Source: a virus | Lineage: Duplodnaviria > Heunggongvirae > Uroviricota > Caudoviricetes | Length of the DNA stretch: 36,183 nt | Direction: 5' to 3' (one strand) | Virus record (IMG/VR): IMGVR_UViG_2551306525_000009 | In this document: positions 136-36,183 of the stretch, piece after piece | Layout: each line of letters starts with the position of its first letter | Numbering within the stretch: the first letter of the stretch is position 1 | Position numbers and translations under genes: made by a program | Notes under the pieces: model-generated | The model's input: the letters and a program-made list of their open reading frames with translations, nothing else | The model's database searches: none | Told to the model about the DNA's origin: nothing

Positions 136-276
136 TTACTGCTTACACTGTAAGAACGCCGCAAACTCCGCGCCCCAGAAGCTCATCCGTATTTCGCACA
201 GCGAACCATGCAATATCCAGATGATGAGGATTACCGTCACGCAGAACGTGATGGCTGTAAGCGATTTTTGCGACAT
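136..276 (-). CDS. Hok/Gef-family small membrane toxin (type I toxin-antitoxin), 46 aa; not in the ORF track because it is under 60 aa
   Basis: manual translation MSQKSLTAITFCVTVILIIWILHGSLCEIRMSFWGAEFAAFLQCKQ; one TM helix then SLCEIR...AAFLxCK, matching the conserved Hok tail (HokA ends SLCELH...AAFLACK, from memory); AAGGAG 8 nt upstream of ATG. Confidence 0.6.
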   Translation of the reverse strand: MSQKSLTAITFCVTVILIIWILHGSLCEIRMSFWGAEFAAFLQCKQ

Positions 277-24144: not shown

Positions 24145-24525
24145 TCAAAAAGAAGACTGGAACTCTTCTGCTCTGCGCTCAATTTCTGCCATGTAGGATG
24201 TACGGGCTAACTCATGCGCATTGGGTGTCATAATGCTGATTAGCTGATACTTATCTGGATATAAGAAATGGCGGGAGTAAACAAGATAACTGTTTGATTT
24301 ACGCGAGGCGGCAGGTAGCTTTGCAGGCCACGGCTGTTCATCAGGTAAACGAATGTGAATCTTAAAAACAAAAGAATCACGAAGACGCCCGCTATCTTCC
24401 CACTGCCCTTCGTTGCCAAAGACTGAGGGTAAAGATCCGCCGTTTTTCCATGACTGCAAAGCATGTGCATATTTGCGAGCAACTGCGGGGAGTTCTATGT
24501 CATTGTGGACAGAGACTTTAATCAT
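24145..24525 (-). CDS. YafO-like toxin-domain protein
   Basis: 126 aa; C-terminal LISIMTPNAHELAR...AEEF resembles E. coli YafO (LIAILKPEPHKLAR...AEAF, from memory); also SLPSVFG vs VLPDIFG and SYLVYS vs AHLVYC. Confidence 0.5.
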   Translation of the reverse strand: MIKVSVHNDIELPAVARKYAHALQSWKNGGSLPSVFGNEGQWEDSGRLRDSFVFKIHIRLPDEQPWPAKLPAASRKSNSYLVYSRHFLYPDKYQLISIMTPNAHELARTSYMAEIERRAEEFQSSF

Positions 24526-24534
24526 GGCCCTGCC

Positions 24535-25128
24535 TTAATGGAACGTTGGATCTTTAAGGCCCAGCTTTTTATGTTCACTGCGGATAAGTGCGCGAACCTG
24601 ATCGGCGGTAACACCCAGATCAGCATCTGAAGTTTTCTTCGGCACATGCGTGCTTTCAATGAAGGATAAAATATCTTCAATCGTATAGCGGAGCGTCGCA
24701 GCGGAACGAGCAAAAGCGACAATCTCTTTTCTCAGTTCCGCGTTACTTTCAGGTACGCTTTTCAGCGCAACCCTTGCAGCCTCGACAAAACTTGCACATA
24801 CCGCAATATGACGGAAAAGGCTTTCAAACCCTTCCTGAGTCTCTTTTTTCTGATTTTTCAGAATAATAGGGATCTGCTTTTCTTCCCATTCGATGCGAAG
24901 GTTTGCCCTGTGTGTCTTCATCCTATCAGCCAGGTTAAGCATATAACTGGTGGCCTCATCAATAGGAAGGTATGCCACAGAATCCTTTACGTCCTGGAGG
25001 GATAGCGTAGACGTACTGTGCCGGGAGATTGATAAGTCATGATGCACAATGCTACTGGCAGGAACAGGGGCGAGAGCCACCGCCAGCGCTGCGGCCATAG
25101 ATGTTATTTTATTTTTTTTACTGCTCAT
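24535..25128 (-). CDS. hypothetical protein, 197 aa, N-terminus resembles a signal peptide or TM anchor (MSSKKNKITSMAAALAVALAPVPASS)
   Basis: ORF with GGAAAGG RBS; 9 nt upstream of the YafO-like gene; not recognisable as YafN/RelB-type antitoxin. Confidence 0.55.
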   Translation of the reverse strand: MSSKKNKITSMAAALAVALAPVPASSIVHHDLSISRHSTSTLSLQDVKDSVAYLPIDEATSYMLNLADRMKTHRANLRIEWEEKQIPIILKNQKKETQEGFESLFRHIAVCASFVEAARVALKSVPESNAELRKEIVAFARSAATLRYTIEDILSFIESTHVPKKTSDADLGVTADQVRALIRSEHKKLGLKDPTFH

Positions 25129-25217
25129 AATTGCCTTTCCTGCCAATAATCGTGAACCACTGCCGGAATGATAGCGCAAAAAATCACCCGCTGAAACGAA
25201 TTATCCTTGCGGCAAAA

Positions 25218-25304
25218 CTAGCCCGCGTCAACCTCATACCACGCCAGCGTCGATTGATAGTTTTGTGCCGCCTCGCGTAATGCCTGATAGTCAATTTTGC
25301 TCAC
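25218..25304 (-). CDS. putative 28-aa micro-ORF (VSKIDYQALREAAQNYQSTLAWYEVDAG), GTG start overlapping upstream stop
   Basis: AGGAGG 7 nt upstream of GTG; GTGA overlap with stop of the 174-aa gene; identified manually. Confidence 0.3.
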   Translation of the reverse strand: MSKIDYQALREAAQNYQSTLAWYEVDAG

Positions 25305-25825
25305 TGGTTGCCTCCTTTGTGTTGCGTCAGCTCTTCCTGCGCCTGCATCATGCGATTGACCTGAATGCGTGTGCGTCGAACGGCAAAATTAAATTGAAAC
25401 ATGAGCCGGAACATTTCTGAGGCTTCCGTGTGAGCATCATGGAGAGGTGACAGGCGGTACAGTTCTGCCTCCGTAGCTTGTTGAATCAATGACAGATCAA
25501 ATTGAAGTGCGGGTCTGGTACATTTTGCACTTCTGGCAGCAAGCTCCGGCATCAGTTTCTTAACGAAGGTGTTTTGCACCGCTTTGTTGAGTTGTGTCTG
25601 CATCCAAATCGCAAATTTCAGCGAACGCATAAGTTTGATAGCCTCGGGCAGCGGCAGATAGATCATGCTGGTAGATTTGGGTGGTTGGTGAATCATCTTC
25701 ACGGATACGCGATTTCGCAGCGTTCGGAAAATCGTGTTCCCAACAACAGCTTCTACGGATACAGGACAGGGAGCCAGACCAGCCCGCAGTGCTTCTTTCA
25801 TTGGCATGTATTCGTATTTTTTCAT
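25301..25825 (-). CDS. hypothetical protein, 174 aa
   Basis: ORF with GAGGA RBS; no family recognised. Confidence 0.55.
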   Translation of the reverse strand: MKKYEYMPMKEALRAGLAPCPVSVEAVVGNTIFRTLRNRVSVKMIHQPPKSTSMIYLPLPEAIKLMRSLKFAIWMQTQLNKAVQNTFVKKLMPELAARSAKCTRPALQFDLSLIQQATEAELYRLSPLHDAHTEASEMFRLMFQFNFAVRRTRIQVNRMMQAQEELTQHKGGNQ

Positions 25826-25885: not shown

Positions 25886-26221
25886 TCATTCATGCGTTTT
25901 TTCTTCATGGTCTGTCACTTCTCCCCTGATAATTTCATTGCACAAATCCACGCACTCATTGCAGATGTAAACAGACGGTCCGGCAATCACCTTTATGACT
26001 TCGTGCTGGGATTTATTGCAGAAGCTGCAATAAATCGTCTTCTTGCCTGAAGTCCATGTTTTGCTGATTTCGCCAGACATCAGTTGCTTGATGTCTTTTT
26101 CACGACGAAGAACTATCTGGCCACATTCAGCTATTTTTTGGATGTTGACATTTTCTTCTTTCGCCAGCGCTTCCATTCGCTCAATCAGTCGCTGCGCTTT
26201 TTCTCTGTCAATGTGTTGCAT
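25886..26221 (-). CDS. small protein with ClpX-type C4 zinc-binding domain (ZBD) at its C-terminus
   Basis: [39 protein letters not shown] is near-identical to the E. coli ClpX N-terminal ZBD ([39 protein letters not shown], from memory); GGGGG RBS. Confidence 0.8.
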
Positions 26222-26255: not shown

Positions 26256-26279
26256 CATCAGGGCGGATGCGCCCTGATG
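26256..26279. other. hairpin between parR and the ClpX-ZBD gene (CATCAGGGCG-gatg-CGCCCTGATG)
   Basis: perfect 10-bp stem read directly; may separate transcription units or stabilise mRNA. Confidence 0.45.
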
Positions 26280-26284
26280 TTGTG

Positions 26285-26596
26285 TTATTCGGGAAATAAC
26301 GCCCGGATATTTCTGGCCATCTGACTGGTTATCTGTGCGGTTGATACTGGCTGTGACGCGGGGCGTTCTGTCCTGGTTTGTGTCACCGATAACGCCTCAT
26401 CGTCAGCCCATGCAGCCAGTCGGTAAGCCTCTGCCGGATTCATTTTCAGAAGTGCCAGCCCGGCCAGAAAAGCCACGCGTTGGCCGCTTTTGCGGGCTTC
26501 TGGTGTAAGGCTGTCCAGCCAGGCGCATGCTTCGCCTTCGTTCTTGACGGCGGCGGGCTTCAGATAGAAACTTATCCGTCTGGTTGGTGTCGTCAT
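26285..26596 (-). CDS. parR: ParR-like ribbon-helix-helix centromere-binding protein
   Basis: RRISFYLKP...LDSLTPEARKSGQRVAFLAGLALLKMNP...IRALFPE parallels plasmid R1 ParR (from memory); AGGAG RBS. Confidence 0.7.
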   Translation of the reverse strand: MTTPTRRISFYLKPAAVKNEGEACAWLDSLTPEARKSGQRVAFLAGLALLKMNPAEAYRLAAWADDEALSVTQTRTERPASQPVSTAQITSQMARNIRALFPE

Positions 26597-26600
26597 TGGT

Positions 26601-27560
26601 TTACTCCTTGTCCATTGCGTACAGCCCATTAACCAGAGCAAACTGTGGCACCCCGTCCGCGATGAAAGTCGCATTAACTCCGCAGGCTTCGCGGATAGCG
26701 GGTGCCACAATCTCCGCCCCTCCACCGACAACCATCACCCGCCCGTAACCCGAAAAACCCGCCAGCGCGCGGATCACGCGTTGTTTCAGTGTTTCTTCCT
26801 TTTCACGAATAACCTCCATCAGGCTGGCGTAATGCGCGTCATTGTGGATGTGCTGGCGCAGCCAGGCTTCATTATGGCGATGTTCGATAATGGTATTGGC
26901 GATGTGGTGACTGGTGCGCATACCGTTAGTGGCCATCACCGACAGTACGGCATCGGCCATCAGAGAAACGCCTACGTGTGGATCGCAAAACACCTGGCTG
27001 ATACCTGCCAGTTGCCCCTGAACCTTTGCCACATCCAGCGTGGTTCCGCCCAAATCTACAATCAGCAGGGATTCAAACGGACTCATGTCAGCCAGTGCCT
27101 TAAAGCCAGCCGGAATGGATTCAGGCATAACCCGCACGTTACGGATAGTGAATGCTTCGCCGTTCTGGTACTCCACCGGGCGCATAACGTTCGCTTTTTT
27201 GCGGTTGATGTTGGCCATGTCCGGCTGTGCGTTTGTGTCGAAATACTCGCTCAGTGGCAGGGTGACAACCACATCCACCTCCTGTGGCGTGATGCCTGAT
27301 TTGACCAGCGCGTGATGAATGGCAATGACATTCACATCGCTGTACTGGTATTGCGTGTCGGTCGTCTGGACAAAGCGATCGCTGACCGGATCAAAACCAT
27401 AGCGCACGCCATCAAGCATGTAGTTCGCAGGCTGCGAGCCACCGAACGGCGCAGACCATTCCGACTTGAAGCTGTTCGGGCTGATGGCGTTGCGGCGTTC
27501 GCCGTTCTCAGTCCATGCCAGCTTGATGTTGGTGGAGCCGTCGTCGATACAAATTTTCAT
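26601..27560 (-). CDS. parM: ParM/StbA-family actin-like segregation ATPase
   Basis: MKICIDDGSTNIKL (phosphate-1), LIVDLGGTTLDV (phosphate-2), VVGGGAEIV (adenosine) motifs; 319 aa. Confidence 0.8.
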   Translation of the reverse strand: MKICIDDGSTNIKLAWTENGERRNAISPNSFKSEWSAPFGGSQPANYMLDGVRYGFDPVSDRFVQTTDTQYQYSDVNVIAIHHALVKSGITPQEVDVVVTLPLSEYFDTNAQPDMANINRKKANVMRPVEYQNGEAFTIRNVRVMPESIPAGFKALADMSPFESLLIVDLGGTTLDVAKVQGQLAGISQVFCDPHVGVSLMADAVLSVMATNGMRTSHHIANTIIEHRHNEAWLRQHIHNDAHYASLMEVIREKEETLKQRVIRALAGFSGYGRVMVVGGGAEIVAPAIREACGVNATFIADGVPQFALVNGLYAMDKE

Positions 27561-27596
27561 GTCGCTTTTCCTTATGTTGATTAATTAATCGTTTAC

Positions 27597-27627
27597 GGGA
27601 TTCTGAAATCCCGTTTTTGCCTGTTTT
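27597..27627. repeat. repeat unit 1: GGGATTctgaAATCCCGTTTTTGCCTGTTTT (internal 6-bp palindrome), between parM start and A stop
   Basis: read directly; second near-identical copy 74 bp away. Confidence 0.6.
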
Positions 27628-30463
27628 ATGCGCGCTTCATATATCGCGGCGCGTTTTTTTGCTCATTTATGGGATTTGTGAATCCCGTTTCTGTCTGTTT
27701 TTTGTTTCCACTGGTCAGGCCACCCCGCAGCAGGTCTGCTTTGCGGCGGGCGCGTTCAGTGGTTTCACTGATTCTCTGTGCGTGCTCTGCGTCGCGGATG
27801 GCGCGCAGCATGTCAGAAAGCACGGTAACGGGTGTTTTCATGGTGTTCTGGTCCTGCTGAAGTGTGGATGCCAGGCGTGCGGCGGCTTCAGGGTCTGATG
27901 CCCCCAGCTGTGCCAGATAGCTGGCGACCGGGTTATGGCGGATCTCCGTGCTGCTTACATCGTGATTACGGCTCAGGCGCTGCCAGAGCTGCGTGATTCG
28001 GCTGTCCGGGCGGGTATCCGGTTTGCGTACAATTTCAAATCCCTGCGGTGCAATGATGCTGCCGTCAACGTACAGACTGCCGCCCCGTAACAGGTGCTGC
28101 ATCTGTTGTTCACCGATATGCAGGCCAAGGGATTCAGCAGACTCCCGCCATTCTTTAGCGAGTAATTCGTGGTTATCAGGCAAAGGCCGCTGCTGTTTGC
28201 GGCTCTGTGTCCAGCTCTGCATTTCATCACTGTTGTTTTTTGCCTGTTTGTCACGCAGCGAACGCATCAGCGCCCGGCGTTCGTGCCGTTTCAGTGAGTG
28301 CAGCCATTCGTTCACTTCAACACCGTCAGGGATCTGCGGCCACGGTGCTGGCCGTTCTTCCGGCTGTTCTGTCCCGTTGTTGTCCGTTTCCTGTACACGG
28401 GGACAGTTATTGCCACGAGTCCAAGGGGCGGCAGGGCCGCCCTGAAGGTCAAAACCATTTTCGCGGGCGCTGTCTTCCGCTTCCGGTTTACGTCTTACCA
28501 GCTTCCAGTTATCCGGATGCGTGCACACACGGGAGGATTCCCCGATGAGTGGTGACCAGATCCCGTAAATCTGTACGCTCTGTTCGCCGTAATCGTTCAG
28601 CTCATCGGCGAGGTCGTAGGCGGTGCGAATCAGGTAGTCCTTGCGTGGAACAAGTACGCCGCCCTGTTTCTCTATATAGGTGGCAAAACATCCGGCATCA
28701 GCGGCAGCGAGTACCGCATCCATTGCGTCATCCTTCAGCCGTTGCGGGCCTTCCGGGTTGCGTGCCATCTGGCTGGCAAGGCGGCGGAGTTCACGCCACA
28801 CCTGACGGGAGGGGATGCCAAAGAACTGGAACTGGCGGACCCGGTGAAGGCGCGCCCAGCCGATGGCGCGCTCCACGCTCTCGGCCATTGATTTTCCGGT
28901 TTCGTGGTCAACGCGTGGTTTGCCCGTTTTCGGGTCGATGCCATCCACGGCGCGGCTGTCCAGGTTCTTTCCGATGTAGGTGGCGATGTAGCTGGTTGGC
29001 GTGCCTTTTGAGCCGTCTACATACTCCGCCTTAAAGCGCGGAGTAATATCATCACCCAGCTCGTGACGATCTTCCTGAATGGCAATATCGCGGGTGTGGG
29101 ACACAATGGTGTCGATTTCTTCCGGATGGGCAAAGACCATCATATGCCAGTGTACGGTGCCGTCATGGTGAGGCTCCACCGTGCGGATGCCATACCAGCG
29201 CAGGCCGTCGCGGTTCAGTTTTTTGCGGACCGCCGCAAAAAACGTGTTAACCAGGTAGTCGCTGGAGTCGCGCATGGTGGCCCCGTTCCATTTGGGGTTC
29301 GGATGACCGTTCTCCGTTGTTGCGTGGTATTTTGACGGGCAGGTGACAGTCAGAAACACCGCTTTGTCACCACGGGCTTCGGCCAGAAGTTCCAGCCCCT
29401 TCATGGTGGCCATCATTTCTGCCTTACGGTGAACCGGGTTACTTACTCCCGCGTAATACACTGTCTCGAGATCAATCGTGAACCCGTCTTCGTTTTCCAG
29501 CATGAAACTTTTCAGGAAATCGCGTGTTTTCTCGCGCTGTGCGCGAAACTCGCTTAACGCGTCCTGGCTCAGATAAGGCGATGTTTTTCTGGAAACCAGA
29601 CAGGCGGCGCGGAGTTGTTCTTCTCTCCACTCGCAACGTAACAGCCACAGTTTGCGTTTCCACCAGTCCGCACAGGTCAGGCGAAGGATTGCGCCCGGCA
29701 GCAGTTCCGTATCCGGTTCGCTCTTGTTCAGGGCTTCGTAATGTGGCGGCATGATGTGCAGGCGTAATGCGATACGAGCCAGCATCCGGTAAGCCTTCAA
29801 CATTACATCCATGGTCAGCTCGCCATCTCTGGCACCAAAGCCATCGCAGAGTGTTTCGAAGGTGCTGCTGAACATCGCCGCGGTCATGGTGGCCAGCGTC
29901 TGTATCTGGTGCTTGTTGAGCTGCGGCAGGTAAAGCAAATCGTCCAGGCGTTCGCGCCCGGCAAGGGAGCGATAACCCGGTGTCAGCCAGCGTCCGTCAG
30001 TGCGATCCAGACGTTCGAATATTTTGCGCAGGGGTCCGCGTGCATAGCGTTCCGCCTGCCAGCTCTTTTTACCTTTCTGGCGATCGGCTTCCTGTTTTTT
30101 GCGCAGGAAAGAGAGGTGGCGGCTCAGTGGTTCACGCAGATAAACAGGTAGTGCCTTTAGTGTGGCAAAGGCACGGGCTACCGGGTCTTGTTCTGTTGCC
30201 CGGCGCTTACTGATGATGCTCTGTGCCAGCTTTTCACGCTGTCCGGCTTCCTCAAGGGATGCCATGAGTTTTTTACCCATGGCGGATTGTGCGAAAAAGG
30301 CTTCTTCCTTCGCTTCCTGTTCTTCCTGTGCCCTTTTGTCCGCCTCAAGGTAGTAACGGATGGCGCGTTGCAGGTCGGTTTCAGTTTCCTGCCTGCGCTC
30401 CGTAAATCTGGCCGGATCAATGGCTGGCCGTGGTTCATTCCAGCTCCATGCAAACTCGCTCAT
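27626..30463 (-). CDS. A: replication initiation protein A (rolling-circle initiator, P2 gpA family)
   Basis: TVTCPSKYH, VEPHHDGTVHWHMMVF and YIATYIGKN active-site blocks as in P2/186 gpA; start either ATG 30463 (ATGA-coupled) or GTG 30490. Confidence 0.85.
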   Translation of the reverse strand: MSEFAWSWNEPRPAIDPARFTERRQETETDLQRAIRYYLEADKRAQEEQEAKEEAFFAQSAMGKKLMASLEEAGQREKLAQSIISKRRATEQDPVARAFATLKALPVYLREPLSRHLSFLRKKQEADRQKGKKSWQAERYARGPLRKIFERLDRTDGRWLTPGYRSLAGRERLDDLLYLPQLNKHQIQTLATMTAAMFSSTFETLCDGFGARDGELTMDVMLKAYRMLARIALRLHIMPPHYEALNKSEPDTELLPGAILRLTCADWWKRKLWLLRCEWREEQLRAACLVSRKTSPYLSQDALSEFRAQREKTRDFLKSFMLENEDGFTIDLETVYYAGVSNPVHRKAEMMATMKGLELLAEARGDKAVFLTVTCPSKYHATTENGHPNPKWNGATMRDSSDYLVNTFFAAVRKKLNRDGLRWYGIRTVEPHHDGTVHWHMMVFAHPEEIDTIVSHTRDIAIQEDRHELGDDITPRFKAEYVDGSKGTPTSYIATYIGKNLDSRAVDGIDPKTGKPRVDHETGKSMAESVERAIGWARLHRVRQFQFFGIPSRQVWRELRRLASQMARNPEGPQRLKDDAMDAVLAAADAGCFATYIEKQGGVLVPRKDYLIRTAYDLADELNDYGEQSVQIYGIWSPLIGESSRVCTHPDNWKLVRRKPEAEDSARENGFDLQGGPAAPWTRGNNCPRVQETDNNGTEQPEERPAPWPQIPDGVEVNEWLHSLKRHERRALMRSLRDKQAKNNSDEMQSWTQSRKQQRPLPDNHELLAKEWRESAESLGLHIGEQQMQHLLRGGSLYVDGSIIAPQGFEIVRKPDTRPDSRITQLWQRLSRNHDVSSTEIRHNPVASYLAQLGASDPEAAARLASTLQQDQNTMKTPVTVLSDMLRAIRDAEHAQRISETTERARRKADLLRGGLTSGNKKQTETGFTNPINEQKNAPRYMKRA
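27671..27701. repeat. repeat unit 2: GGGATTtgtgAATCCCGTTTCTGTCTGTTTT, inside the 3' coding end of gene A
   Basis: read directly; candidate parC-like centromere/operator or part of the replication origin. Confidence 0.6.
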
Positions 30464-30849
30464 GGCTGGTATCCCGTCACGCGCTGCCACTCCTGCGAGA
30501 AGATGGCGGAAAGGCGGTTAAATTCAGCGGTGTATTCACTCAGCGAGGCACACCCGCCAGCAGTGCGATGCGCCAGCATTGCCGCGAATACGGAGGCCGG
30601 GGAGTCGTAATACGCCAGCAGTGATTCGCCGTGTGGTGTCAGGCAGTGCAACGCCAGCCCGTGTGGTGTGAAGTCCACGCGGTAGCAGTCGTCTACTGTG
30701 AAATAAAGGGTGTCCGCATTCTCCGGTTTTGTAGTGCGTGCTCTGTTGTCACGACCACGGATGTAAAGATCAAATAATCCCTGAAGAACGGGAGCCAGAC
30801 GGGTGTCCTGTGTGCGCACCCATCTTGTGAAGTCATGAGCGTCAATCAT
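30460..30849 (-). CDS. hypothetical protein, 129 aa, stop overlapping A start
   Basis: ORF translationally coupled to A. Confidence 0.5.
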   Translation of the reverse strand: MIDAHDFTRWVRTQDTRLAPVLQGLFDLYIRGRDNRARTTKPENADTLYFTVDDCYRVDFTPHGLALHCLTPHGESLLAYYDSPASVFAAMLAHRTAGGCASLSEYTAEFNRLSAIFSQEWQRVTGYQP

Positions 30850-30921: not shown

Positions 30922-31152
30922 TTAATGGAGTTTGTTTTGCTGCTGGATGAGCTGCTGAAGCTCGCGCAGATCATCCGCCAGATAGCTGAAAACAGCGGAT
31001 GAATAGAGGTTTGAAAGTTCGCAGCTACGCTCATGCAGCATATTGATGTGCATGATTTTAGCGACGCGGAATGCGCGGGAAAGTCTGCGGTTGATTTCAG
31101 TCTGGATGTGACGACGCTCCGCGATAGCGCGGTGCTGTTTGCGGTTTGCCAT
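30922..31152 (-). CDS. hypothetical basic small protein, 76 aa
   Basis: ORF with possible GAGG RBS; Arg/Lys-rich N-terminus. Confidence 0.4.
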   Translation of the reverse strand: MANRKQHRAIAERRHIQTEINRRLSRAFRVAKIMHINMLHERSCELSNLYSSAVFSYLADDLRELQQLIQQQNKLH

Positions 31153-31162
31153 GGTGTGGCCT

Positions 31163-31366
31163 CGTGTATAGTAAGTTTTGAAAACTCACCATCCAGAGGT
31201 GGAAAACTCGGGGTGGTGAGACGTACAGGGTTTCCACAACCGGCTATACACGAACCCGGCCCGACCGAAGTCGGCCCCATACGCCCCACCATAATTCTGA
31301 CGCGAAAAAGACGTGGCGATACGGTACGCACAAAAAAACCGCTGGCGCGGTTGTGCGCGTGTATAG
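31163..31366 (-). ncRNA. candidate cis-regulatory RNA region: 9-mer CGTGTATAG at 31163 and 31358 with its complement CTATACACG at 31244
   Basis: three copies read directly, allowing mutually exclusive pairings; located in the 5' UTR of the 76-aa ORF within a 367-bp non-coding gap. Confidence 0.3.
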
Positions 31367-31491
31367 TCAGCGGGGTGGAAATCCCGGCACCCGTTTTATG
31401 AGGTGCAGCGGAAATGTAACCTGACTGATTGCGGCATGGCAAGCGGTTTTTTTGTGAGAACGGCATACTAAAAAATCCTGATGCTGCTCCG

Positions 31492-35127: not shown

Positions 35128-35193
35128 CCCTTTATTATTCTTACATTTTACAAACTGGAAATGTCTTTCCTCGTTTCACCGGAGGGCTTGCCA

Positions 35194-36183
35194 ATGGCAA
35201 TTAAAGCACTCGATGGTGGACGGTATAAAGTGGATGTTAGACCGCGTGGCCGAAGTGGACGTCGGATTCAGCGGATTTTTAAGAAAAAGGCAGATGCAGT
35301 GGCCTTTGAGCGTTATGTTCTCAGCCACATGCACGATAAGGAATGGCTTGAAAAGCCAACAGAGCAACGTCATCTCTCAGATCTGCTTCCGTTATGGTGG
35401 GAATTGGGTGGACGCAATAAGCCATATGCTAACGGCGTTCTAACCAGGTTGAAAAAAATCATCAAAGAAATGAATGATCCAAGGGTTAGCCAGATTAATG
35501 CTCGTTTCATGGCCGCTTATCGAAGCTCCCGTTTATCCTTGGGAGTAAAAGAGTCTACTGTTCGGCGTGATGAGTCGGATCTCGGAGGAATGTTTACACT
35601 CCTAGCAAATGCCGGGGAATTTCACGGAGAAAATCCGCTCCGCGCCCTCCCCTCTTTGAAACGAAAATCACCCGAAATGACGTATCTCACCACGGAAGAA
35701 ATCGCCAAATTACTGGATGCAGTAAGCGGTGATGCCCGGCGGATTACGCTACTTTGTCTCAGTACTGGGGCGAGATGGGGAGAAGCGAAAAATCTGCGCG
35801 CGGAACACATCATCAATAATCGCGTGACGTTTAACAAAACTAAAAACGGAAAAGTTCGAATTATTCCTGTCTCTGATGAAGTTGTTAGTGAGATCAAAAC
35901 AAAGAAATCCGGCCTTTTGTTTGACGTCAATTATGAGGAATATCGCAAGGTGCTTCGCAGTGTTAAGCCAGACCTACCAAAAGGACAGGCTGTACATGTT
36001 CTACGCCATACCTTTGCTGCTCACTTTATGATTAATGGAGGAAATATACTTACGCTCCAGCGAATTATGGGGCACGCCACGATCCAGCAAACTATGACCT
36101 ATGCGCACCTCGCTCCTGATTTCCTCCAGGATGCAATTTCACTTAATCCGTTAAAAGGAGGCATCCACATTTCATCCACATAA
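35194..36183 (+). CDS. int: tyrosine integrase
   Basis: LDGGRYKVDVRP, RVTFNKTKNGK, HVLRHTFAAHFMINGG, TLQRIMGH..IQQTMTYAHLAP blocks as in P2 Int; GGAGGG RBS. Confidence 0.9.
   Translation: MAIKALDGGRYKVDVRPRGRSGRRIQRIFKKKADAVAFERYVLSHMHDKEWLEKPTEQRHLSDLLPLWWELGGRNKPYANGVLTRLKKIIKEMNDPRVSQINARFMAAYRSSRLSLGVKESTVRRDESDLGGMFTLLANAGEFHGENPLRALPSLKRKSPEMTYLTTEEIAKLLDAVSGDARRITLLCLSTGARWGEAKNLRAEHIINNRVTFNKTKNGKVRIIPVSDEVVSEIKTKKSGLLFDVNYEEYRKVLRSVKPDLPKGQAVHVLRHTFAAHFMINGGNILTLQRIMGHATIQQTMTYAHLAPDFLQDAISLNPLKGGIHISST

Follow-up and report, generated by a model that had tools for sequence, protein, structure and literature searches.

An R1-type ParMRC partition cassette in an integrating P88-like prophage: its integrity, its distribution and a possible role on transient phage circles

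Introduction

What use might a phage that integrates into the chromosome of its host make of a segregation locus of the type carried by plasmid R1? The question is raised by the IMG/VR virus record IMGVR_UViG_2551306525_000009, a stretch of 36,183 nucleotides referred to here in its entirety as the window, in which an earlier reading of the letters alone (the sequence-only reading) had picked out genes for an actin-like ParM and its partner ParR beside gene A, the replication gene of a P2-like phage. To judge by its sequence, this cassette is a real, intact and ordinary ParMRC module, housed in an unusual host element that has been noted before. The favored interpretation, to which a probability of roughly 0.55 is assigned, is that it would act as a standard ParMRC machine which shares out the phage genome, while this is transiently circular following infection or excision, among the daughter cells, limiting abortive lysogeny and curing.

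It is clear that the cassette is already known, and that the present analysis amounts to confirmation plus detail and is not a discovery. The annotation of phage P88 includes a 'plasmid segregation protein ParM' and a 'partition protein', RefSeq applies the same annotation to Escherichia coli chromosomes, GenBank entries are annotated as well, and PHROGs families exist for both proteins. The novelty implied by the sequence-only reading falls away because the same idea was stated by Rousset et al. (2022; PMC9122126), who noted a putative partition system, possibly allowing plasmid maintenance, in about a quarter of P2-like phages. The 'putative plasmid partitioning system' of their gpA-gpQ hotspot is the same class of locus, lying between gene A and the portal gene Q, and receives one sentence, without analysis of cis-acting sites, selection or distribution outside E. 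coli. The paper on phage phiSM lists the cassette as a 'plasmid stability' fitness gene (PMC6456863). No functional study of a P88-type ParMR was found in the literature searched, which mostly omits subscription journals, and one could exist.

The partition genes and the phage that carries them

The genes concerned are the following.

26601..27560, minus strand: parM, encoding an actin-like segregation ATPase of 319 amino acids
26285..26596, minus strand: parR, encoding a predicted centromere-binding adaptor of 103 amino acids, with its ATG at 26596
27626..30490, minus strand: gene A, encoding a P2-type rolling-circle (HUH) initiator (Pfam Phage_GPA, E 1.8e-130; 31% identical to P2 A)
35161..36183: integrase gene, at the end of the window

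The cassette thus lies directly downstream of gene A, as had been proposed. ParM matches the StbA_N (E 2.1e-82) and ParM C-terminal (E 3.7e-68) domains of Pfam, both from end to end, and aligns over its full length with ParM of plasmid R1 (PDB 1MWK/1MWM; 47% identity, E 5.9e-93). Its nucleotide-binding blocks, DDGSTNIKL (phosphate-1), VMPESIPAG (catalytic; PESIPAG), DLGGTTLD (phosphate-2) and GGGAE (adenosine), are identical to those of R1 ParM. The three actin-fold motifs noticed earlier are therefore present and, when properly aligned with 1MWK, intact and not degenerate; by the Pfam matches and this alignment ParM is the actin-fold ATPase characteristic of type II partition. The closest true plasmid ParMs are those of pOXA-48-type (IncL/M) plasmids, about 52% identical over the full length.

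The start codon of parR lies 5 nucleotides past the stop codon of parM, and the 148-amino-acid, TTG-initiated open reading frame (ORF) in the program-made list is an upstream extension of parR that overlaps parM. ParR belongs to Pfam family PF10784 (E 1.6e-24), which R1-type and pOXA-48-type ParR also match, and BLASTP aligns it with R1-type ParR at 34% identity over the first 56 amino acids (E 2e-8). A direct sequence search of the PDB with ParR alone matched no solved structure; a profile of eleven ParR sequences, that of the window included, matches ParR/StbB of pB171 (PDB 2JD3, E 2.5e-15), the ParR whose N-terminal ribbon-helix-helix structure was solved. The RISFYL-type start and ParR-like core described previously are borne out by these matches, and the family and profile evidence points to a ribbon-helix-helix adaptor encoded downstream of parM, as type II systems have. 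From its N-terminus, which is conserved (MTTPTRRISFYLKPAAV), the protein continues through a helical core and a hypervariable linker to a C-terminal motif, NI(R/Q)xLFPE, that is likewise conserved. In the broader form (R/K)xN(I/A)xxLFP(E) this motif is common to pOXA-48-type ParR and, more loosely, to R1-type ParR, and its Asn is invariant in the 11 sequences.

Both genes bear the marks of selection. Among 12 intact copies from phages and prophages of E. coli, E. albertii, Salmonella and Citrobacter, parM has a mean nonsynonymous divergence (dN) of 0.0076 and a mean synonymous divergence (dS) of 0.106, a ratio of about 0.07, and is under strong purifying selection. Within parR the ratio of nonsynonymous to synonymous polymorphism (pN/pS) is 0.10 over codons 1-17, which include the RRISFYL strand, 0.37 over codons 18-66 (the helical core), 0.79 in the linker and 0.25 in the last 10 codons. 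This is the pattern expected of a working adaptor, in which the predicted DNA-binding and ParM-binding ends are constrained and the linker evolves almost neutrally. Of the 13 copies sampled, 12 have intact ORFs, parM being frameshifted in one phage record (503458).

At least four allele classes of ParR occur in prophages of E. coli and E. albertii, sharing the N-terminal 17 residues and the C-terminal motif and having unrelated linkers, so that many nucleotide matches end near parR codon 18 (for example in ST131 and O157 strains). These first 17 residues hardly vary, each of two copies having one substitution, and the arms of the upstream palindromes described below do not change; the idea that the alleles represent distinct centromere specificities in E. 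coli was therefore rejected.

The prophage that houses the cassette is P88-like and belongs to the genus Xuanwuvirus (family Peduoviridae); its nucleotide identity to P88 (NC_026014) is 92-98% across most of the window and 98% in the cassette region. It is collinear with P88 except for the immunity and tail-fibre regions and the cargo that separates parR from the portal gene, and both its genome-wide nucleotide similarity and its gene order (int-C-cox-early genes-A ... Q-P-O-N-M-L ... tail genes-ogr) place it among the P2-like phages. That the phage is integrative, as first supposed, agrees with its integrase gene and with the host genes that flank related copies, namely pheL/raiA in strain CFS3292 and yecA/leuZ in O157 Sakai. 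It lacks the attributes of a phage-plasmid, that is, extrachromosomal lysogeny and a plasmid-type replicon, usually without integration; its replication protein is of the P2 gpA type as opposed to that of a plasmid replicon. A 46-amino-acid Hok/Gef-type toxin ORF (MSQKSLTAITFCVTVILIIWILHGSLCEIR...; window 136..276, minus strand) is annotated as Hok/Gef in P88 and related prophages, and searching the window phage for Sok and hok RNA families gave nothing above the Rfam threshold. With this ORF and parMRC, the phage has homologues of both stability loci of plasmid R1.

Distribution and history of the cassette

The cassette is present in 1308 of 5426 complete E. coli genomes, about a quarter, at 1454 chromosomal and 2 plasmid places, and some genomes hold two or three copies. 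The matching type of gene A occupies 1780 places in 1576 genomes, as against 1456 places for the cassette, and roughly 18% of the places with this gene A are thus without a detectable cassette. The cassette is accordingly dispensable for the phage and is a frequent, not an obligatory, companion of gene A.

These counts bear directly on the episomal maintenance that the sequence-only reading had put forward as the first of three alternatives, the others being a stabilization module and an exapted function. That the phage persists for many generations as a low-copy plasmid instead of integrating, a role also suggested by Rousset et al. (2022; PMC9122126), is decidedly improbable. One PLSDB entry (NZ_CP148288.1), a circular molecule of 34,461 bp that is filed as a plasmid, comprises a complete P88-like genome whose int and methyltransferase ends are joined as in an excised circle, and the hok gene on the same phage is of the plasmid-stability type. 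These observations are set against the 1454 chromosomal and 2 plasmid places, the constant presence of integrase, repressor and cox, and the lack of any theta-type plasmid replicon, and the other PLSDB hits inspected are a chimeric record with chromosomal genes (Salmonella) and a linear fragment (Shigella). Among 50,697 phage records, moreover, R1-type ParM is confined to P88-like phages (95-99% identical) and the P1-like phage-plasmid D6, whose StbA/ParM-type locus encodes a 47.5% identical ParM; D6 is a 91-kb plasmid prophage that needs partition in every generation, whereas the window phage integrates. The ratio of places, the constancy of the integration and repression genes and the inspected PLSDB hits together indicate that stable plasmid lysogeny is not the normal state; of the earlier proposal, what survives is a transient excised or replicating state, which fits better.

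Three of the database records call for comment in their own right. The Salmonella 'plasmid' pS2122_1 (NZ_CP110658.1), typed as IncHI2A and filed as a 272-kb molecule, carries the prophage beside the core genes pheL, pheA, tyrA, rplS, trmD and ffh and looks like a plasmid-chromosome chimera or a misassembly. The Shigella PLSDB record with the cassette is a linear fragment disrupted by IS1. A contig assigned to the Gram-positive 'Vagococcus sp. WN89Y' (NZ_JBQPOM010000071.1) contains an E. coli-type prophage region with a 97% identical ParM, and is most likely contamination or a mislabelled assembly.

Beyond this close group, a scan of contigs with exact ParM peptide patterns was too narrow, returning three near-identical loci, and the distant relatives come from protein searches combined with genomic context. 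A large protein collection holds ParM intermediates at 54-62% identity. Four of them were located on contigs, and all four lie in P2-like prophages, of Hafnia, Plesiomonas, Serratia and Enterobacter, in the slot that has gene A on its upstream side and the portal and terminase genes on its downstream side; in Hafnia and Enterobacter parM is separated from A by one or two further genes. More distant chromosomal relatives belong to a conjugative element (Dickeya) and an integrated plasmid (Mangrovibacter). Neighbour-joining unites the ParMs of Escherichia, Hafnia and Plesiomonas with a bootstrap of 100/100, and gathers all phage-borne ParMs into a single clade with just 52/100. With 54-62% identical relatives in the same slot and this support for the ParM clade, the association of ParMR with gene A in P2-like phages is therefore an old one, and it may have arisen once or twice.

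Could the cassette nonetheless be inert, a piece of a plasmid that was picked up once, hitch-hikes with the phage and is now decaying? The places with gene A and no cassette, and the frameshifted parM of record 503458, are what such decay would leave. The dN/dS of about 0.07 and the domain-specific constraint on ParR speak against it, as do the intact ORFs of nearly all sampled copies, the synteny kept down to 54-62% ParM identity in other genera, and the retention of the cassette in the heavily deleted prophage Sp13, discussed below. An inert relic is contradicted by the selection and synteny data and is the least probable of the explanations considered, very nearly dismissible.

A two-palindrome element upstream of parM

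If the module is to act as a partition system it should have a cis-acting site, and the candidates lie immediately upstream of parM.

27589..27630: proximal 42-nucleotide repeat, with the palindrome ACGGGATT-CTGA-AATCCCGT at 27595-27614, between gene A and parM; proposed first half of parC, or operator
27663..27704: distal 42-nucleotide repeat, with the palindrome (A/G)TGGGATT-TGTG-AATCCCGT at 27669-27688, within the 3' end of gene A; proposed second half of parC
27577..27589, minus strand: AT-rich block, ATTAATTAATCAA on the sense strand, 17-30 nucleotides 5' of the parM ATG

The sequence-only reading had described two 31-bp repeats at this position. Two repeats with GGGATT/AATCCC palindromes are indeed there; each is 42 nucleotides long, however, and the distal one falls inside gene A. 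They are direct repeats, 79% identical and 74 nucleotides apart, each with an 8-4-8 palindrome of the form ACGGGATT-N4-AATCCCGT. The core GGGATT-N4-AATCCC occurs at just these two places in the 36-kb window, where 0.07 would be expected by chance. Across 13 aligned copies the 4-nucleotide spacers vary and the arms do not, except that the window itself differs by one base on the outer edge of the distal arm.

The positions of the palindromes are also conserved between genera. Counted from the ATG of parM they stand at -126 and -52 in the window (Escherichia), -128 and -55 in Hafnia, and -131 and -59 in Plesiomonas. The latter two prophages, whose ParMs are 60-62% identical to that of the window, keep two GGG(A/T)..-N4-..(A/T)CCC palindromes despite diverged flanks and a different preceding gene. 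In Serratia and Enterobacter ParR begins with NRKISFYL, as compared with TRRISFYL, and the cassettes have a different upstream element, a large inverted repeat containing ATTTTTCT that resembles the iterons of pOXA-48. This positional conservation, together with the co-variation of the upstream element with the ParR N-terminus, is the best available support for the view that the repeats are probably ParR binding sites.

The arrangement differs from that of R1, in which parC comprises ten direct 11-bp iterons flanking the promoter; the window has two palindromes of 16-20 bp, spaced 74 bp apart and one of them within gene A, and a pattern scan detected no consensus promoter. The AT-rich block, which three genera retain as TTAATCAA, might be a weak -10 element of a ParR-controlled promoter, or a leader element. 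A role for the repeats as terminators was rejected, as a terminator-like score is obtained on the antisense strand only, with nothing there to terminate.

Between the palindromes, at the end of gene A (window 27630-27660), a GC-rich inverted repeat (GCGCGC...GCGGCGCG) is followed by seven T on the plus strand. The T run is one base shorter in the other 12 aligned copies. As a result, roughly the last ten codons of gene A are read in another frame and the gene ends at a different stop codon, a TAA at 27626-27628 here and a TGA further upstream in P88.

Partition of transient phage circles

How might such a module serve an integrating phage? It would be a functional type II module that a single lineage of P2-like phages (P88/Xuanwuvirus and relatives) has as a fixed accessory unit. 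On the favored interpretation, ParR dimers would bind the two palindromes 5' of parM, growing filaments of ATP-bound ParM would be captured by the conserved C-terminus of ParR, and paired circular phage genomes would be pushed apart. The products of P2 replication are monomeric double-stranded circles, which are plasmid-like substrates. The module would be idle while the prophage is chromosomal and active on the free circle, whether in the interval between infection and integration or once the prophage has excised, spontaneously or by induction, during replication driven by gene A. Delivery of copies to both daughter cells would then make abortive lysogeny and curing less frequent.

In favor of this account stand the intact features of both proteins, the selection on their genes, the conserved palindromes, the synteny across genera and the suggested co-expression with gene A. 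Two further points are that circles of a related element exist, and that an integrative element offers a precedent. Prophage Sp13 of O157 Sakai is a defective P88-type remnant that has lost its head, packaging and lysis genes and retains an intact int, early region and gene A along with ParR and ParM (annotated stbA, ECs_2634; 98% identical to the window ParM). Asadulghani et al. (PMC2669165) found that Sp13 excises spontaneously into circular DNA, that this DNA rises about 30-fold after mitomycin C and that the early genes are induced; its excision was confirmed in another O157 strain (PMC5931665). The supplements of PMC2669165 contain no expression values for Sp13 stbA.

The closest functional precedent comes from the SXT/R391 integrative and conjugative elements, whose type II partition system, srpMRC, stabilizes the excised form, which replicates by the rolling-circle mode, and is expressed only upon activation (Carraro et al., 2015; PMC4489591). 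Like the window cassette it is a type II system on a normally integrated element that replicates through a rolling-circle HUH enzyme, and its centromere likewise consists of a few direct and inverted repeats 5' of the ATPase gene. The parallel is one of situation more than of descent: SrpM is distant from R1 ParM and SrpR has no recognizable ParR homology, whereas the window proteins are close to the plasmid archetypes, and the host of srpMRC is a conjugative element as opposed to a phage. The function of srpMRC has been demonstrated experimentally, while the window cassette is known from sequence.

Several considerations weigh against partition of transient circles. The putative centromere has only two sites, compared with the ten iterons of R1 parC, and may therefore serve chiefly as an operator. 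When a complete P2-like phage excises, lysis normally follows, leaving few divisions in which partition could matter, and the 18% or so of gene A places without a cassette show that the phage can do without it. The expression timing is derived from simple pattern scans, and a small-RNA module (isrK/C4) with a terminator upstream of gene A leaves the extent of the transcription unit uncertain. Finally, ParR binding, filament formation and stabilization are all deduced from sequence comparison.

Gene A, the origin and transcription

The proximity of the cassette to the replication gene invites a different view, for which the position of the origin is pertinent.

28403..28451, minus strand: putative region of the origin and its nick site, within gene A, placed by homology to the nick site annotated in P2 (rep_origin 29892)

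At this place about 74% of the aligned nucleotide positions match P2, where the proteins are only 31% identical. The cassette had been described as next to the origin; on this evidence the origin would instead lie within gene A, approximately 0.7-0.85 kb from the repeats. Pattern scans found no consensus sigma-70 promoter for parM between gene A and parM, and no sense-strand terminator there in the window, which suggests that parMR is co-transcribed with gene A.

One rival explanation is accordingly that ParMR organizes the lytic cycle, positioning or spreading replicating circles or stimulating the gene A nickase, so that replication or packaging becomes more efficient and inheritance is beside the point. 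The location of parMR 3' of gene A and in the same orientation in five genera is in keeping with this, as are the lack of a terminator between them in the window and the putative origin no more than 0.9 kb away. Two precedents exist. In the CGP3 prophage of Corynebacterium glutamicum, AlpA and AlpC are induced early and are required for efficient replication of the prophage (Donovan et al., 2015; PMC4446434), and ParM and ParR of R1 stimulate the relaxase TraI (PMC4949242), an HUH-type enzyme as is the gene A product. A physical or functional link between ParMR and gpA finds no support in the present data, however; P2 itself and most P2-like phages replicate well without ParMR, and one or two genes intervene between A and parM in Hafnia and Enterobacter. 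Such an activity is in any case compatible with partition, and both could coexist. Taken as the explanation, it is rather unlikely.

Carried furthest, the same line of thought makes ParMR a phage cytoskeleton coupled to the rolling-circle machinery of gene A and not a plasmid-maintenance device, a proposition that can be held only tentatively and is as doubtful as the lytic role itself. Filaments anchored at the two palindromes near the origin would separate or position the monomeric circles made by gpA, and would perhaps stimulate nicking by gpA. If this were true, replication or packaging would be higher or the lysis-lysogeny outcome altered, and the phage-specific ParM clade of Escherichia, Hafnia and Plesiomonas would have co-evolved with gene A.

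Gene A has features of its own. Its ORF of 954 amino acids starts with GTG (homologous copies are annotated at about 940 amino acids) and is some 190 amino acids longer than the 761-amino-acid P2 gene A, by virtue of a C-terminal extension that has no Pfam match and ends in the distal par repeat. In strain CFS3292 the gene A homologue is annotated as frameshifted, though the parMR region is 100% identical to that of the window.

Upstream of gene A, Rfam recognizes a C4 antisense RNA (77 bits) and an isrK Hfq-binding RNA (63.5 bits) at window 31209-31296 and 31332-31406, respectively, both on the minus strand. They lie just 5' of ORF 30922..31152, the counterpart of the P88 'derepression protein' gene, and of gene A, and isrK has its own promoter-like site and terminator (31352-31337). 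C4 RNA is known from the immunity systems of P1 and P7. Sp13 can be induced by mitomycin even though its repressor has no peptidase motif (PMC2669165), and an antirepressor-type C4/isrK module may account for this.

Comparison with known partition systems

Among characterized loci the window cassette is closest to the ParMRC (parA/stb) systems of R1/NR1, the IncL/M plasmids of pOXA-48 type and par2 of pB171, with which it shares the order repeats-parM-parR. The full-length identity of its ParM to those of R1 and pOXA-48 (47% and 52%) is accompanied by identical ATP-binding motifs, its ParR falls in the same Pfam family as the R1 and pOXA-48 proteins, the family profile matches the solved pB171 ParR, and its C-terminal motif (K/R)xN..x(L)F resembles the ParR C-termini of R1 and pOXA-48. 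Besides the upstream element, the carrier differs: R1-type loci reside on low-copy theta plasmids, while this one resides on an integrating phage that replicates by the rolling-circle mode.

AlpA/AlpC of CGP3 is a prophage analogue in behavior, comprising a prophage-encoded actin-like filament and a DNA-binding adaptor that recognizes sites 5' of its own operon, with early induction after excision and action on circular phage DNA. AlpC, in contrast, is a divergent actin-like protein of a Gram-positive host, the adaptor gene comes first, and the role demonstrated is efficient replication or transport, not partition.

The boundary of the cassette and the adjoining cargo

On its other side the cassette borders a variable region.

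26256..26279: GC-rich hairpin with a 10-bp stem, just past the parR stop codon

Alignments to other prophages end at about 26256-26285, at or just past the parR stop codon, and this break at the hairpin marks the cassette as the constant inner edge of the variable cargo region between genes A and Q. Directly 3' of parR, ORF 25886..26221 (minus strand; 111 amino acids) encodes little beyond a ClpX-type C4 zinc finger (Pfam E 1.3e-17; PHROG 6797); P88 has this ORF, as do many related prophages, though not all. The remaining cargo ORFs between parR and the portal gene, 24145..24525, 24535..25179 and 25301..25825 (all minus strand), are absent from P88. They include an ORF for a toxin of the YafO family (Pfam E 2.3e-27) and two others, 214 and 174 amino acids long, without a match in Pfam, PHROG or PADLOC. 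Given their absence from P88 and their place in the known gpA-gpQ hotspot, these are candidate uncharacterized defence or toxin-antitoxin genes.

This neighborhood raises the further possibility that the cassette serves lysogenic conversion or competition, with the ParR or ParM of the prophage hindering incoming plasmids or related phages through partition incompatibility or exclusion, or acting in some other form of defence. The adjoining A-to-Q hotspot is rich in anti-phage systems (PMC9122126), ParR specificity is reported to set plasmid incompatibility in Clostridium perfringens (PMC9426499), and the two or three copies in some genomes could be seen in the same light. A known defence system was dropped as an explanation, since the defence models of PADLOC-DB 2.0 match neither ParM nor ParR nor the four downstream ORFs. 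The cassette is, moreover, constant and syntenic across genera, unlike the hotspot cargo; its palindrome is unlike the iterons of R1-type and pOXA-48-type plasmids, which implies that common plasmids would not be targeted; and the palindrome arms are uniform among ParR alleles. A competitive function is on balance improbable.

Implications

What the present analysis adds to the earlier annotations is a two-palindrome element and its conservation across genera, the pattern of selection on parM and parR, a phage-specific clade of ParM, a chromosome-to-plasmid count that argues against stable plasmid lysogeny, and a link to the documented circles of Sp13. The close kinship of the module to the best-understood bacterial actin, and the genetic tractability of phages such as P88 and phiSM, make the question of its function easily testable.

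About a quarter of E. coli genomes harbor an actin-type segregation cassette inside an integrating virus. If partition of transient circles is what this cassette accomplishes, the principle established for SXT/R391, that integrative elements need plasmid-like inheritance while excised, would extend to phages, and the same activity could help to account for the persistence of prophages that are defective yet still able to excise, such as Sp13 in O157:H7.

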